A stretch of 39,895 nt of DNA from assembly GCA_016193105.1 (NCBI GenBank), contig JACPSU010000103.1:1-39895 (forward strand), in the 5' to 3' direction. This DNA comes from Deltaproteobacteria bacterium. Lineage in GTDB: Bacteria; Bdellovibrionota; JACOXK01; 2-02-FULL-40-11. Positions 9,543 through 33,638 of the stretch are shown here, one piece after another. Both the position numbers and the translations under genes were made by a program. Numbering within the stretch: position 1 is the stretch's first letter; every line of letters begins with the position of its first letter. Below the pieces are notes generated by a model. The model saw nothing but the letters and a program-made list of their open reading frames with translations. It was not told where the DNA came from and did not search any database.

Positions 9543-10898
9543 ATGATCTTAAAAAATAAAAAAGTTGTTATTATCGGGCTTGCCAGAAGTGGAGTGGCTG
9601 TAGCGCAATTTGCAACGCAACGCGGAGCGAAGGTTACGGTGACAGATTTGAAGACCAAAGCAGAGCTTCAATCTTATCTTAAACTTTTGGCACCGTATAA
9701 AAAGATCAAATATGAATTGGGGCGGCATCCTTTAAAAACTCTTTTGGCGGCAGATCTTTTTGTAGTGAGTCCTGGTGTTCCATTGACCAACCCTTTGATT
9801 GAACAAGCAGTTAAGAAAAATAAAAAAATAATGAGTGAAATTGAATTTGCATTTCAATTTATTACTGTCCCCATTATTGCTGTGACTGGAACTAATGGCA
9901 AAACGACAACAACGATGATGATTGGAGAAATGCTAAAAAATGCCAAGAAAAAAGTTTTTGTAGGGGGAAATATTGGCAATGCCTTGACCAACATGCTTTT
10001 AAGTAAAGAAAAATATCAGGTTGCTGTAGCTGAAGTGAGTAGCTTCCAATTGGAACATGTTTCAAGTTTTCAGCCTAAGGTTGCGCTCATTCTTAATGTG
10101 ACCCCCGATCATTTAGATCGCCATGGTTCAATGGAAAATTATCGAAAGGTGAAAGGGCGCATTTTTCAAAATCAAAGAGCTACGGATGCTCTCATTTTAA
10201 ATGCTGATGATGAACTTGTAAAAACATATGCTCTAGAATCAAAATCACATGCTTATTTTTTTGGAAAAGGGGGGCTCTCGGAAGGACAAGAGGGGGTCTA
10301 TTATAAAGAAGGCCGTTTTTATCTAAAGACCAAAGAGCTGGGACGAGAACAATATGTGACAGATCAAGTTAAGGTGAAGGGAGATCACAACAAGGAAAAT
10401 TTTATGGCCTCCCTTTTGGCAGCTAAAATTTTAAAATGTTCTCCGGAAGCCATTCAGACGACGCTGAATAATTTCCAAGGAGTTACTCACCGTCTGGAAT
10501 ATGTGAAGACGAGAGGGTATGTGGAATTTTATAACGACTCTAAAGCAACCAACCCTTATTCTGTCATGAGATCTCTGGAGAGCTTTACAAAGCCGCTCAT
10601 TCTTATTATGGGAGGGAGGGATAAAGGCTGTGAGTTTGAAATTTTAAGACCTTTAATCCAACAAAAAGTAAAAAATCTCATTCTCTTAGGAGAGGCGAAA
10701 GAAAAAATAAATAGAGCCATTGGGGACTATACTGAAACTTTTCTAGTGGGAACGTTAGAGGAAGCTCTTTTTATGGCCTATCAAAAATCTCGAGCAGGAG
10801 ATGTTATCCTCTTTTCTCCAGGGTGTTCAAGTTTTGATATGTTTAAAAATTACGAAGATAGAGGCGATCGGTTTAAAGAGCTATTGCGAGATCTTTAA
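9543..10898 (+). CDS. murD: UDP-N-acetylmuramoylalanine--D-glutamate ligase
   Basis: N-terminal Rossmann motif (GLARSG), VTGTNGKTTT P-loop, dcw order. Confidence 0.92.
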   Translation: MILKNKKVVIIGLARSGVAVAQFATQRGAKVTVTDLKTKAELQSYLKLLAPYKKIKYELGRHPLKTLLAADLFVVSPGVPLTNPLIEQAVKKNKKIMSEIEFAFQFITVPIIAVTGTNGKTTTTMMIGEMLKNAKKKVFVGGNIGNALTNMLLSKEKYQVAVAEVSSFQLEHVSSFQPKVALILNVTPDHLDRHGSMENYRKVKGRIFQNQRATDALILNADDELVKTYALESKSHAYFFGKGGLSEGQEGVYYKEGRFYLKTKELGREQYVTDQVKVKGDHNKENFMASLLAAKILKCSPEAIQTTLNNFQGVTHRLEYVKTRGYVEFYNDSKATNPYSVMRSLESFTKPLILIMGGRDKGCEFEILRPLIQQKVKNLILLGEAKEKINRAIGDYTETFLVGTLEEALFMAYQKSRAGDVILFSPGCSSFDMFKNYEDRGDRFKELLRDL

Positions 10899-12011
10899 AT
10901 GAACCGCAAAATTCCTTTTGACTATTGGTTACTGGTCATTGTTTTTGCCCTTGTCCTAACAGGGATTGTGATTGTTTATAGCTCCAGCTCCATTTTAGCC
11001 TCTCAAAATTATAACGACAGTTATTTTTTTCTCAAAAGACAAGCTTTCTATGCCACATTTGGATTTTTAATTCTCATCGGGCTTTTGCTTGTAGACTATC
11101 ATCATTACTTTAAGATTATTTATCCTTTTTTATTTTTAAGTCTTATTTTGGTAGGAGCAGCCATGATTCCAGGGATCGGGCACCGCGTAGGGGGAGCTTC
11201 TCGATGGTTGGGAGTGGGAGGTTTTAGGTTCCAGCCTTCGGAGCTGGCCAAATATGCACTCATTTTTTATCTCGCCTATTCTTTGGCTAAAAAAGAAAGT
11301 TCCATTCGATCTTTTGCTGTTGGATTTGCCCCGCATTTGGTTGTTTCTGGTGTTTTTATCCTTCTTCTTTTGGCACAGCCTGATTTTGGTACAGCTATTT
11401 CTGTTTCCTTTATTGTATTTTTAATGCTTTTTGCAGCTGGAACGCGACTTTCTTATATTCTATCTGTACTTATTATTTCTTTGCCTTTGGTGGGATATGG
11501 AATGATGAGCGCTCCTTATCGTCGAAAAAGAATTTTAGCTTTTTTAAATCCCTGGGAAGATCCGGGGAATACCGGTTTCCAAATCATTCAATCCTTTTTG
11601 GCCTTTTATTCTGGAGGAATTTTTGGTTTGGGTTTAGGAGATGGAAGACAAGAACTTTTTTATCTTCCCGAAGCGCACACCGATTTTATTTTTTCGGTGT
11701 TGGGGGAGGAAGTGGGGCTCATAGGGGTCATGGGAGTTTTAGTTCTTTTTATTCTTTTTTTATATCGAGGCATCAGAATTGCTTTGAAAGCCCCAGATCT
11801 TTTTGGAACGTATTTGGCTTTAGGCATTACAACCCTTATTGGTTTTCAAGCTATTACCAATATTGGGGTTGTTATGGGACTTTTACCGACAAAAGGCCTT
11901 GCGCTTCCTTTTTTAAGCTACGGAGGAACCTCTCTTATTTGTAATTTAGCGGGCATAGGAATTCTTTTAAATATATCTGTTCAACAACAGGAAGTTTCGC
12001 AAAGACTATGA
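10899..12011 (+). CDS. ftsW: SEDS-family peptidoglycan polymerase / lipid II flippase FtsW
   Basis: About 10 TM segments, motifs FQPSELAKYALI and LPTKGLALPFLSYGGTS. Lies between murD and murG. Confidence 0.9.
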   Translation: MNRKIPFDYWLLVIVFALVLTGIVIVYSSSSILASQNYNDSYFFLKRQAFYATFGFLILIGLLLVDYHHYFKIIYPFLFLSLILVGAAMIPGIGHRVGGASRWLGVGGFRFQPSELAKYALIFYLAYSLAKKESSIRSFAVGFAPHLVVSGVFILLLLAQPDFGTAISVSFIVFLMLFAAGTRLSYILSVLIISLPLVGYGMMSAPYRRKRILAFLNPWEDPGNTGFQIIQSFLAFYSGGIFGLGLGDGRQELFYLPEAHTDFIFSVLGEEVGLIGVMGVLVLFILFLYRGIRIALKAPDLFGTYLALGITTLIGFQAITNIGVVMGLLPTKGLALPFLSYGGTSLICNLAGIGILLNISVQQQEVSQRL

Positions 12012-24873: not shown

Positions 24874-25010
24874 CTGTTGAAAAAGTTAAAGCTGTTCAAA
24901 AAGGCCCAGATACTAGGCGCCCAAGGAGTGACGACTGAGGCGTACTTAATCGTACGTCGAAGGAGGCACGACGAGGGTAACGACGGAGATGGGACTTTTT
25001 CAACAGCTTT
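24874..25010 (+). promoter_or_regulatory. GC-rich structured intergenic element bounded by a 13-bp perfect inverted repeat; candidate cis-regulatory or processing RNA within the BMC operon
   Basis: CTGTTGAAAAAGT (24874-24886) pairs with ACTTTTTCAACAG (24994-25006). A second left-arm copy, AAAGCTGTTCAAAAAGG, sits at 24888-24904. The core carries three ACGAC-GAGG motifs and two AAGGAG. The right arm ends at the start codon of the next gene. Confidence 0.5.
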
Positions 25011-31660: not shown

Positions 31661-32629
31661 TTAAACACACACGGTGCAATTTCGGCCTTTACGTTTAGCT
31701 TGATAGAGAGCTTTGTCCGCTCTTAAAACAAGTTTCTTAGGATTTTTTTCTTTAGAATATCCGGCAGCTCCAATGCTAATGGTAAGTCCTTTTTTCTTTT
31801 TATTTTTAATTTTATATGAAAATTTTTTATGAACCACTGCTTGGCGGAGTCGTTCCGCCATCTCTTGGGCTTTTTTAGGGGGAGTTTCTGTGAGAATAAT
31901 AGCAAATTCTTCTCCACCATACCGAGCGATGAAATCTGTGCTTCGAATATTTTTTTTCAAAACCTGGGCAATGGTTTTTAAGGCTTTATCTCCTATAGCA
32001 TGTCCATGCTCATCATTATAATTTTTAAAATAATCGATATCGACTAAAAGCAAAGACAAAGGATGTCCATAGCGGTCAGAGCGTTCGACTTCTGCTTGTA
32101 GTTGGGCCCAAAAATAACGTGGGTTTCCTACCTGCGTGAGTTCATCGGTTACCGCAAGCTCGCTTAGTTTTTGAGTGCGATCTTGGACTGTTTTTTCAAG
32201 CCCTTCATTGATTTGTTTTAATTCTTGAACGAGCTCTCGATTACGTATTTCCAAGTCAAAACGTTCTAAGGCTCGTTGAACAATGAGTTTAAGCTCATGG
32301 TTATTCCAAGGCTTAGTAATATATCGATAGAGGCCCCCTTCATTAATCGCTTCGATCAAATCTTCCACATCCGTATAGCCTGTCAAAATCATCCGAAGTA
32401 TATGCGGATGAGTTTTTTGAAGAGTTTTAAAAAACTCAATTCCTGTCATCTCTGGCATTCGTTGGTCACAAATGACAAGAGAAATGGAATTTTTTTCAAC
32501 AATCTCTAGTCCTGCTTTGCCACTATCAGCCGTATAGACGGTGGCTACGGTCATAAGAGTGCGTTCGAGTGCTTTTAAATTTTCTATCTCATCGTCGATA
32601 AGAAGGATAGAATGCCTTGTGCTTTGCAT
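31661..32629 (-). CDS. response regulator with GGDEF diguanylate cyclase output domain (PleD/WspR-like)
   Basis: Receiver domain (ILLIDDE.., phospho-acceptor context LVICDQRMPEMTG, ..KPW), coiled linker, GGEEF active site with an RSTD (RxxD) I-site five residues upstream. Confidence 0.9.
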   Translation of the reverse strand: MQSTRHSILLIDDEIENLKALERTLMTVATVYTADSGKAGLEIVEKNSISLVICDQRMPEMTGIEFFKTLQKTHPHILRMILTGYTDVEDLIEAINEGGLYRYITKPWNNHELKLIVQRALERFDLEIRNRELVQELKQINEGLEKTVQDRTQKLSELAVTDELTQVGNPRYFWAQLQAEVERSDRYGHPLSLLLVDIDYFKNYNDEHGHAIGDKALKTIAQVLKKNIRSTDFIARYGGEEFAIILTETPPKKAQEMAERLRQAVVHKKFSYKIKNKKKKGLTISIGAAGYSKEKNPKKLVLRADKALYQAKRKGRNCTVCV

Positions 32630-32651
32630 GAAAGTAGAGTAAGCAATTCAT

Positions 32652-33638
32652 GTGAAAGAGTCAAATAAAGTCAACATAATAGATGAATTTTATATCGTGA
32701 AGACCGTCGCGCAGACCGAGCGGGCACGGTTCGAGCGAAGCGAGAGAGCGAGGTCGAGCGCGAGCGCGAATTCCCCGCTGGGGAATTCGATAGCGTGTCT
32801 GAAAGAGATAAAATTCATCTATTATGTTATTTTCTTTGTTTCTTTTCTGTTTACTTACTCTACTCTTCAAGCGCAGACGGGGGAGGAGAAGTTTTTGAAA
32901 TGGGTGGAGAGGGAGATTGAGAAAAATAATAAAAAGGATGCTATTGAAGTTCGGCCCTTAGAACAAGCCAAAGCATTTTTCAATGGTCCCAAAGATTCCC
33001 CTTTAGAAAAGAAAATCACGGTCGAGCCCACGGGAGATTTTATTTATACAGAGATTGCAGAGCCCTTTGAGGGGGATTACAAAAAAGCAGTCCGTCTGTA
33101 TTGGGATATTACAACAGGTAAACAAAAGCCTAGTCTTTTTATTGAAAGCGGGGCGGGACGGGATGAGAAGGTTACAAATCTTCGTTCCATAGATAACGGA
33201 GTCGAATTTATCTCAGATCGTGTGTATCAAAGCTCTTTGGCATTTAATAGTCGAACAACCATTCACCTTCATCGTTTTGATGTGGAATCTAAACATTTAG
33301 TTATTGTCGTCAATGAAATGGTCAAAGATTGGGGTGCGGAGTTAGCTAAAAAGAAAGTGAAGCGACTCTCCAAATCTTATTACCCTATTTTTCGCGATTT
33401 AAATATTGATGTCTATCAAGAAAGTGAGCCCAATAAATTTTGGTACCACTCTTATGCTCTTTATAAAGGGCAAGGGATGAAATCGACCAACCTCTCTTTA
33501 AATGTGGCTAAAAAAGTGGGAGATGTTTTTTCTTTTGGAATGCTGGATAAGGGATTGAAGGCTAAGCTGACTTCTGAGGCGATGAAGATTTGGGAACGTC
33601 GTCGCCAAGTATTTCAGGATTTAATTCTTAAGCCTTAA
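32652..33638 (+). CDS. exported protein of unknown function; 5' end remodelled by a GC-rich foldback cassette (start uncertain)
   Basis: The ORF is open from GTG 32652. A convincing signal peptide (KEIKFIYYVIFFVSFLFTYSTLQAQ) begins only at codon 50, right after a second copy of TGAAAGAG. Alternative starts are GTG 32697 or CTG 32799. Confidence 0.6.
   Translation: MKESNKVNIIDEFYIVKTVAQTERARFERSERARSSASANSPLGNSIACLKEIKFIYYVIFFVSFLFTYSTLQAQTGEEKFLKWVEREIEKNNKKDAIEVRPLEQAKAFFNGPKDSPLEKKITVEPTGDFIYTEIAEPFEGDYKKAVRLYWDITTGKQKPSLFIESGAGRDEKVTNLRSIDNGVEFISDRVYQSSLAFNSRTTIHLHRFDVESKHLVIVVNEMVKDWGAELAKKKVKRLSKSYYPIFRDLNIDVYQESEPNKFWYHSYALYKGQGMKSTNLSLNVAKKVGDVFSFGMLDKGLKAKLTSEAMKIWERRRQVFQDLILKP
32661..32828. 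repeat. foldback cassette: 21-bp perfect inverted repeat around a GC-rich core with an internal 10-bp hairpin, flanked by the direct repeat TGAAAGAG
   Basis: AACATAATAGATGAATTTTAT (32673-32693) is the exact reverse complement of 32808-32828. Core hairpin CGAATTCCCC-GCT-GGGGAATTCG at 32767-32789. GTGAAAGAG (32652-32660) and CTGAAAGAG (32799-32807) are exactly 147 nt apart. Confidence 0.6.

Follow-up and report, generated by a model that had tools for sequence, protein, structure and literature searches.

The window analysed here, a 39,895-nt stretch of DNA (contig JACPSU010000103.1 of assembly GCA_016193105.1), holds at positions 32652 to 33638 an uninterrupted open reading frame (ORF) for a lineage-specific exported protein of 328 amino acids, for which a Pfam search returned no family, and this frame runs straight across a GC-rich foldback element close to its 5′ end. 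A divergent response-regulator/GGDEF gene precedes it, and since the start codon of that gene is only 22 nt from the GTG at 32652, the element belongs to the portion of the exported-protein gene that is transcribed and translated, instead of occupying a promoter gap. A first-pass annotation of this DNA had drawn attention to a pair of direct repeats, a 21-nt inverted repeat, a GC-rich core and a hairpin with EcoRI sites, and on re-checking the coordinates of all of these are correct: the 9-nt direct repeats (GTGAAAGAG at 32652–32660 and CTGAAAGAG at 32799–32807) have a spacing of 147 nt; positions 32673–32693 (AACATAATAGATGAATTTTAT) are the exact reverse complement, over 21 nt, of 32808–32828 (ATAAAATTCATCTATTATGTT); and the hairpin at 32767–32789 (CGAATTCCCC-GCT-GGGGAATTCG, 10 bp) contains GAATTC twice. 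The true stem at the locus measures 24 bp with one mismatch, 32673–32696 being paired with 32805–32828. GC content reaches 66% over 32700–32799, against 40% for the genome, and folding of the region, one of the checks then proposed, shows it to be far more stable than shuffled sequence (−75.4 kcal/mol for a 171-nt stretch versus −45.6 ± 4.0 for shuffles; z = −7.4, with none of 200 shuffles equal). The features of the locus are listed below, where G000 denotes the source genome (1.84 Mb in 207 contigs), G001 and G002 the two other species of its genus, and G004, referred to later, a sister genus.

31661–32629, minus strand: divergent response-regulator/GGDEF gene, start codon 22 nt from the GTG at 32652
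32652–33638, plus strand: exported protein, 328 aa, lineage-specific; ORF open across the element
32652–32660, plus strand: GTG AAA GAG, probable start codon and codons 2–3 of the exported-protein gene (GTGAAAGAG kept in G002, ATGAAAGAG in G001)
32661–32672, plus strand: 12-nt spacer TCAAATAAAGTC from the start region to the left arm, kept in G002
32673–32696, plus strand: left arm, 24 nt, inverted copy of the right arm (21 exact pairs plus ATC/GAG with one mismatch)
32697–32804, plus strand: conserved GC-rich core of repeat family 1, 108 nt (blastn and nhmmer copies 83–93% identical; covariance model matches)
32697–32804, plus strand: architecture of this core, a three-way junction with closing stem AGAC/GTCT flanked by GA/GA, a long helix P2 and a hairpin P3 (consensus fold and covariation)
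32767–32789, plus strand: P3 hairpin CGAATTCCCC-GCT-GGGGAATTCG, the “EcoRI hairpin” (98.5% of cells paired in 74 copies)
32805–32828, plus strand: right arm, 24 nt, coding E-I-K-F-I-Y-Y-V, the start of the signal-peptide hydrophobic region
Exported-protein gene with the element translated: predicted read-through peptide KTVAQTERARFERSER...

A Class-Wide Repeat Family With a Structured Core

The core at 32697–32804 is a dispersed repeat, referred to here as family 1. The whole-genome blastn search that the first-pass annotation had recommended, complemented with nhmmer, finds eight full copies of the 108-nt core in the same assembly, at 83–93% identity, along with two fragments, and alignment of the G000 copies with their flanks delimits a conserved unit, GAAGACCGTCGCGCAG...GATAGCGTGTCTGAAG. 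Across the family the core is about 105 nt long, and core and arms together span about 150–200 nt. A covariance model built from 12 copies, R1, has matches in all 12 genomes of the same class (1–25 copies each, about 91 hits in all) and in none of 29 genomes from other classes of the phylum, while an exact-pattern scan of a species-level genome collection retrieved two MAGs only, both named “Deltaproteobacteria bacterium” and both from groundwater. The whole window has no match in Rfam 15 at the gathering threshold, and a permissive Rfam search with 32620–32880 gave chance-level matches only, with E above 2.

As a single strand, the core folds into a three-way junction. Among 74 copies aligned to R1, 92.3% of the cells assigned to pairs are paired, versus 67% in shuffles, and changes on both sides occur at 41 of the 48 pairs, and slid controls give 36–47%; the P3 hairpin stands out with 98.5% of its cells paired and double-sided changes at nine of its ten pairs. 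Conserved U·G pairs lie on one strand, at the top of P3 in 55 and at the base of P1 in 60 of these 74 copies. Class-wide conservation of the core, its covariation and these one-strand U·G pairs could mean that it has a function and is not just propagated selfishly. Most cores group with others from their own genome, as would be expected under bursts, concerted evolution or repeated renewal, and copies decay by internal deletion, as exemplified by a remnant in purL of G000 and a reduced core in pabB of G002, both described below.

Arms Specific to Each Copy

Directly outside the conserved unit, every G000 copy has its own inverted repeat of 20–33 bp, with no sequence shared between copies, and in 68 copies across the family the arms have a median length of 23.5 bp (range 13–55 bp). 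The 21-nt inverted copy, once considered special to the exported-protein gene, is therefore the local instance of something that nearly every family 1 copy possesses, a copy-specific stem of 14–55 bp. Even for pairs of copies whose cores are at least 92% identical, the identity of the arms is 25–45%, that is, at the random level. Arms shorter than 10 bp were found in only 3 of about 71 copies, and since a purely random mutational origin predicts more armless copies than this near-universal presence allows, arms may form at insertion or be needed for retention. Copies from recent bursts in G009 and G003 have arms of 14–75 nt in common (one 23-nt arm sequence occurs 34 times in G009), from which it follows that arms there travel with the element.

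The transition mismatches of the arms are unevenly distributed, with 44 G·U against 18 A·C on the plus strand of the core (30 against 17 without one recent burst), an asymmetry suggestive, though not decisively so, of RNA-level selection; considered along with the conserved U·G pairs, the same excess of G·T over A·C on that strand hints at a single-stranded intermediate of one strand. At a G002 locus (L029) whose counterpart in G000 (contig C161) is empty, the outer 20 nt of one arm are orthologous to the start of a host lipoprotein gene and the other arm is a net insertion, with a possible direct repeat of about 9 nt. The host origin of one arm is clear in this comparison, and is only suggested at purL and, with G004 as reference, at the exported-protein locus.

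Age and History of the Insertion at 32661–32828

An element occupies the same site, between the response-regulator/GGDEF and exported-protein genes, in both G001 and G002. The G002 copy has the same orientation as that of G000 and a frame that is open from the GTG; its core is of the +6-nt subtype typical of G002 and is followed by AAGGAG, and its right arm differs from that of G000 by five substitutions, four of them mirrored in the left arm. G001 has a core of the G000 subtype in flipped orientation; its conserved ATGAAAGAG does not share the frame of the exported-protein gene and runs into a stop after 13 codons, and the only in-frame start is an ATG inside the left arm. The peptides coded by the element at this locus are unrelated between G000 and G001. 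The stop of the 13-codon ATGAAAGAG frame in G001 (locus L002) overlaps the in-frame ATG of the main ORF (caATGgTAA), an arrangement that could support termination-reinitiation.

An empty orthologous site, whose existence the first-pass annotation had proposed to look for, was found in the sister genus. There, with synteny kept, CAT is followed by 34 nt and then by ATGAAAAAAATGATC..., and the orthologue begins with ATG AAA AAA ATG ATC, 34 nt from the divergent gene, and codes MKKMILFLFLVFPFLGYSQT; orthologues in other, more distant genera are also without the element. Upstream of the orthologue in G006 (locus L009) stand two tandem REP-like GC hairpins ending GCGCGCAGTA, unrelated to family 1. 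Occupancy of the same site in all three species, combined with the empty site in the sister genus, dates the insertion to the ancestor of the genus, and not to recent times as had been supposed. These comparisons show that it took place just after codon 3 and that it has been stop-free and in frame since. The element adds 49 codons by the count of the first-pass annotation, or 56 relative to G004, and no canonical start codon follows it in any of the three species. The target duplication of 8–9 bp proposed for the insertion is also weak on comparison of copies: CTGAA of the CTGAAAGAG repeat is the conserved 3′ end of family 1 (GATAGCGTGTCTGAAG in nearly all copies), so that five of the nine duplicated bases belong to the element itself and only about 4 nt (AGAG) lie outside it.

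Genomic Context and Open Frames

The 68 copies with usable flanks comprise 41 that are intergenic, 13 that lie in the same frame inside long ORFs, 12 at ORF 5′ ends and 2 at 3′ ends. Those inside ORFs, identified by a same-frame search, are divided between seven sense and six antisense to the core, and at the 12 copies located at the extreme 5′ end of an ORF the frame is open through the element. On average, a core offers 3.5 stop-free frames out of six, versus 1.8 in shuffles. In G000, an in-frame family 1 copy lies in the linker of pabB, and another sits exactly between lpxB and lpxK, forming one open frame with no stop or start between the two genes (C54:1–1660, minus strand; element at 290–403); the same joining is seen in both other species of the genus, G001 having the core in flipped orientation. 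In purL of G000, a 42-nt in-frame remnant (C99:5894–5935), consisting of one arm and 40 nt of core and coding ..EGFDSVSRK.., marks the place where G002 still has the full element. Three of four orthologous sets, namely the exported-protein locus, lpxB/K and pabB, include cores of opposite orientation. The in-frame copies in pabB, purL and lpxB–lpxK make translation through the element from GTG 32652 the likeliest outcome at the exported-protein gene as well. Ribosomal bypass and RNA excision were considered and rejected: neither process would require an in-frame element free of stops, and the 13 intragenic copies that the same-frame search recovered are all of this type.

Two of the orthologous comparisons bear on how copies change and settle. 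In the pabB linker (L046), G000 and G004 have the full element, and G002 has a stem of 23–25 bp round a residual loop of 32 nt, which is apparently a core shrunk by internal deletion with its arms persisting. Positions 10840–10905 of the window are an empty site, and at the orthologous junction in G001 (C172:4835–4977) the final 17 codons of the upstream gene have given way to a family 1 copy whose arms are about 40 bp long.

Other Repeat Families, Nesting, and Candidate Mobilising Enzymes

The element at 24874–25010 of the window, which had been described as matching the architecture at the exported-protein gene, resembles it in generic terms only. It belongs (as 24893–25005) to another family, family 2, which has nine copies and fits the classical MITE pattern, its termini being conserved repeats (cagg[a/c]TGTTCAAAAAGG...CCTTTTTCAACA[t/g]cctg) that are not accompanied by site-specific arms; that the two families are the same element is refuted by the lack of sequence similarity and by their different end architecture. 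Family 3, with a 35-nt GC core (CCCCTCCGCCCRGTGTGGATCCTCCC) unrelated to that of family 1, is found in G000 at C60:15422–15455, C99:2231–2261, C18:17296–17328 and C196:8697–8727, with copy-specific, perfect arms of 22–28 bp at the first three of these four and no such stem at C196. A locus with a family 1 copy in G000 (C60:3503–3611) holds family 3 in G001 and G002.

Repeats are also found within or against one another. At C8:5543–5706 of G000, a full family 2 element stands directly against the 5′ third of a family 1 core, an arrangement that represents a nested or truncating insertion, and other small hairpin repeats are lodged inside the P2 and P3 loops of family 1 copies in G009 (for example C20:16628–16856 and C21:32960–33188) and in G003 (C68 and C46). 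Partial R1 matches in G003 and G010, examined as candidates for a “parent” gene of the core, proved to be standard copies whose P3 loop harbours other repeats.

No transposase partner was found for the element. The Y1 transposase/RAYT family (PF01797) is absent from G000, G002, G003, G006, G008 and G009, and such a patchy distribution, with absence from the genome in which copies are most numerous (G009), speaks against mobilisation of the RAYT/IS200 type. Reverse transcriptase (PF00078) is absent from nine of the 12 element-bearing genomes, including the 100% complete G004, and TnpB (PF07282) from all 12, on which grounds retro-mobility and a link to TnpB and omega-RNA were discarded. No parent insertion sequence with family 1 ends was found. 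In G009, the orientation of copies is concordant with GC skew in 9 cases and discordant in 11, so the replication-strand bias of single-stranded-DNA transposons is not in evidence. Finally, no consistent direct repeat was seen flanking burst copies, and the apparent target-site duplication at the exported-protein locus is mostly the conserved end of the element.

Origin of the Element and Alternative Explanations

We consider it likely that 32661–32828 is a copy of a class-wide, non-autonomous foldback family, that it is read through, and that its arms and the flips of its core come from template switching. The first of two readings in the first-pass annotation, a non-autonomous foldback element inserted in frame, thus survives in its essence, borne out by the multi-copy core, the empty orthologue in the sister genus and the open frame, and is corrected in three details (the duplication, the age and the supposed uniqueness of the inverted copy). 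The protein would most probably be made from GTG 32652 through the element, which would place an Arg-rich extension of 49–56 residues ahead of the hydrophobic core of the signal peptide; the insertion looks tolerated, not useful. Arms that are specific to each copy would not be classical terminal repeats recognised by a transposase. They may instead arise, and stay perfect, through intrastrand template switching (snap-back copying) in replication, nucleated by the very stable GC core, with one arm being host sequence and the other its reverse-complement copy, and the same process could account for compensated multi-base changes, outward growth of stems and flipped cores. Template switching is documented to produce perfect stems in a single event, multi-base compensatory changes, stem extension and inverted loops (PMC8794818), and it is because family 1 displays all four of these footprints that we attribute the arms and flips to it. 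The copy-specific arms of the unrelated family 3 point the same way. An arm that is the reverse-complement copy of adjacent, pre-existing sequence is what L029 presents relative to C161 of G000, and compensated changes and inverted loops among close relatives are seen in the four mirrored substitutions and in the three of four orthologous sets with flipped cores. More tentatively, and as a possibility to which we give distinctly less credence, family 1 may exemplify “structure-defined” mobile elements, in which a folded, single-stranded three-way-junction core drives both its own spread and the instant copying of host flank into a stem, and whatever the hairpin contains becomes the mobile unit with no dedicated transposase, a scheme that would explain the shared arms of 14–75 nt in bursts.

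The conservation of the core invites two explanations centred on function. One, which we judge rather unlikely, is that the core is a structured RNA or single-stranded DNA site for a host or resident enzyme, subject to REP/BIME-like protein binding or processing, kept by selection and dispersed only secondarily. Its sequence and three helices are indeed kept class-wide with compensatory changes, the one-strand U·G pairs described above would suit such a role, and the genome-wise clusters of cores fit concerted evolution or repeated renewal; yet genomes have anything between 1 and 25 copies, internal deletions erode some of these (purL in G000, pabB in G002), other repeats nest inside the core loops, neither genomic context nor orientation is fixed, no orientation bias relative to GC skew is seen in G009 (9 versus 11), and Y1 transposase/RAYT is absent from the six genomes named above (G000, G002, G003, G006, G008 and G009). 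The other, an unlikely one in our view, is a cis-regulatory mRNA structure in which the 24-bp helix and GC core sequester the initiation region, translation starts at CTG, ATA or ATC after the element, and the structure responds to temperature, a ligand or RNase III cleavage. The very stable fold on the sense strand, the covarying structure of the family, the 12 of 68 copies at the extreme 5′ end of ORFs, the preference for G·U among arm transition mismatches on the plus strand of the core (44 versus 18) and the AAGGAG after the core in G002 all lean this way. Weighing against it, the same element resides in pabB and purL, between lpxB and lpxK and beside unrelated genes, sense about as often as antisense; at the exported-protein locus itself, G001 has a flipped core and G004 has none; a canonical start codon after the element is lacking in the three species; and Rfam has no match. 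A leader RNA would be expected to keep one position and one orientation ahead of genes related in function, and the contexts of family 1 are mixed. The second reading of the first-pass annotation, a 5′-UTR helix with a CTG start, is not supported: copies occur in either orientation within pabB and purL as well as at the lpxB–lpxK junction, and the G001 orthologue has a flipped core.

The flips themselves raise the prospect of an inverton, with the inverted arms as recombination sites and inversion of the core altering the expression, or the encoded N-terminus, of the adjacent gene. Core orientation does differ in three of four orthologous sets, and the arms are long, perfect inverted repeats, but we regard this explanation as very improbable. 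Because arm sequence is different at every locus, no single site-specific invertase could recognise all of them; an invertible segment of 108 bp would be very short; and template switching would by itself be expected to leave flipped loops behind (PMC8794818). The GC-rich core has no convincing promoter, a promoter scan having returned two weak sigma-70-like matches on flank and arm, of which only the upstream hexamers touch the start codon or the 3′ end of the core, and core flips are seen only between species.

Comparison With Known Systems

Short GC-rich hairpin mobile elements that also enter coding regions of AT-rich genomes are known as the GC clusters of yeast mitochondria and the “byp” elements of Magnusiomyces, the latter being skipped by the ribosome and hence with no need to be in frame. 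In family 1, the 13 intragenic copies of the same-frame search all keep the frame and contain no stop, a pattern that favours read-through over bypass.

A bacterial parallel lies in the Rickettsia palindromic elements (RPEs; Ogata et al. 2000 Science), described as in-frame palindromic repeats (PMC10969869). To the extent that they are portrayed in that source, RPEs and family 1 are alike in being palindromic repeats of about 100–150 bp in a small AT-rich genome with no transposase of their own, in having many in-frame, read-through copies in unrelated housekeeping genes, and in being ancient and common to several species (PMC10969869). For family 1, in-frame open palindromes in unrelated genes amount to 13 of 68 copies, with pabB, lpxB–lpxK, purL and the exported-protein gene as examples. 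Going by the description of RPEs, with which the comparison is made, these are conserved over their full length, and each family is reported to code a conserved peptide, whereas family 1 is conserved in its central core only and has a site-specific stem. Nor does family 1 encode a fixed peptide, as reading frame and orientation vary among copies and the core flips between orthologues. The host of family 1 studied here, a “Deltaproteobacteria” MAG, is also unrelated to Rickettsia. RPE repeat identity also fades with time (PMC6649704), in contrast to family 1 arms, which stay near-perfect.

With MITEs such as Chunjie of Geobacter, Nezha and Correia (PMC10969869), family 1 has in common that it is small, non-coding and multi-copy, with inverted ends that fold back, that it inserts in operons and at gene junctions, and that truncated copies occur. 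Classical MITEs, however, have family-wide terminal inverted repeats that match a parent insertion sequence and target duplications of fixed length; in G000, the arms of different family 1 copies have no sequence in common, no parent insertion sequence was found and no consistent duplication was seen; small size, absence of coding capacity and many copies are thus shared with MITEs, and conserved terminal repeats held in common with an insertion sequence are not.

Hairpins generated by template switching (Monttinen and Loytynoja 2022, PMC8794818), together with quasi-palindrome mutagenesis, provide the likeness in process, for the perfect stems from adjacent copying, compensated changes, stem extension and inverted loops reported there are all four found in family 1. 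The published cases are sporadic and concern rRNA and microRNA loci, whereas in family 1 nucleation would be made systematic by a dispersed GC core, with stems of 20–55 bp at almost every copy. Coding palindromes in nematomorph mitochondria (PMC6649704) are comparable as long, actively maintained, perfect inverted repeats in protein genes with both arms translated, and template switching or gene conversion has been proposed to maintain them (PMC6649704). They differ in being mitochondrial, in reaching up to 284 bp, and in having no conserved GC core or repeat family at their centre (PMC6649704). Taking these comparisons together, we rate family 1 as an undescribed repeat of the RPE/MITE kind, unusual for its conserved structured core and site-specific stem.

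Implications

At a practical level, gene callers will misplace starts and return “extended” or fused proteins at family 1 sites, and R1 could serve to mask the copies. More broadly, in-frame selfish palindromes have long been seen as a curiosity of Rickettsia, and family 1 represents an independent and richer case in free-living groundwater bacteria with small genomes, in which a conserved structured core is combined with perfect site-specific stems, flips and nesting, and for which no transposase can be recognised. It offers a natural system for hairpin-triggered template switching, for the remodelling of N-termini and interdomain linkers, and for the fusion of essential genes. Should structure-defined mobility prove true, such elements would systematically supply this class of bacteria with new N-termini and linkers and with gene fusions, lpxB–lpxK among them.
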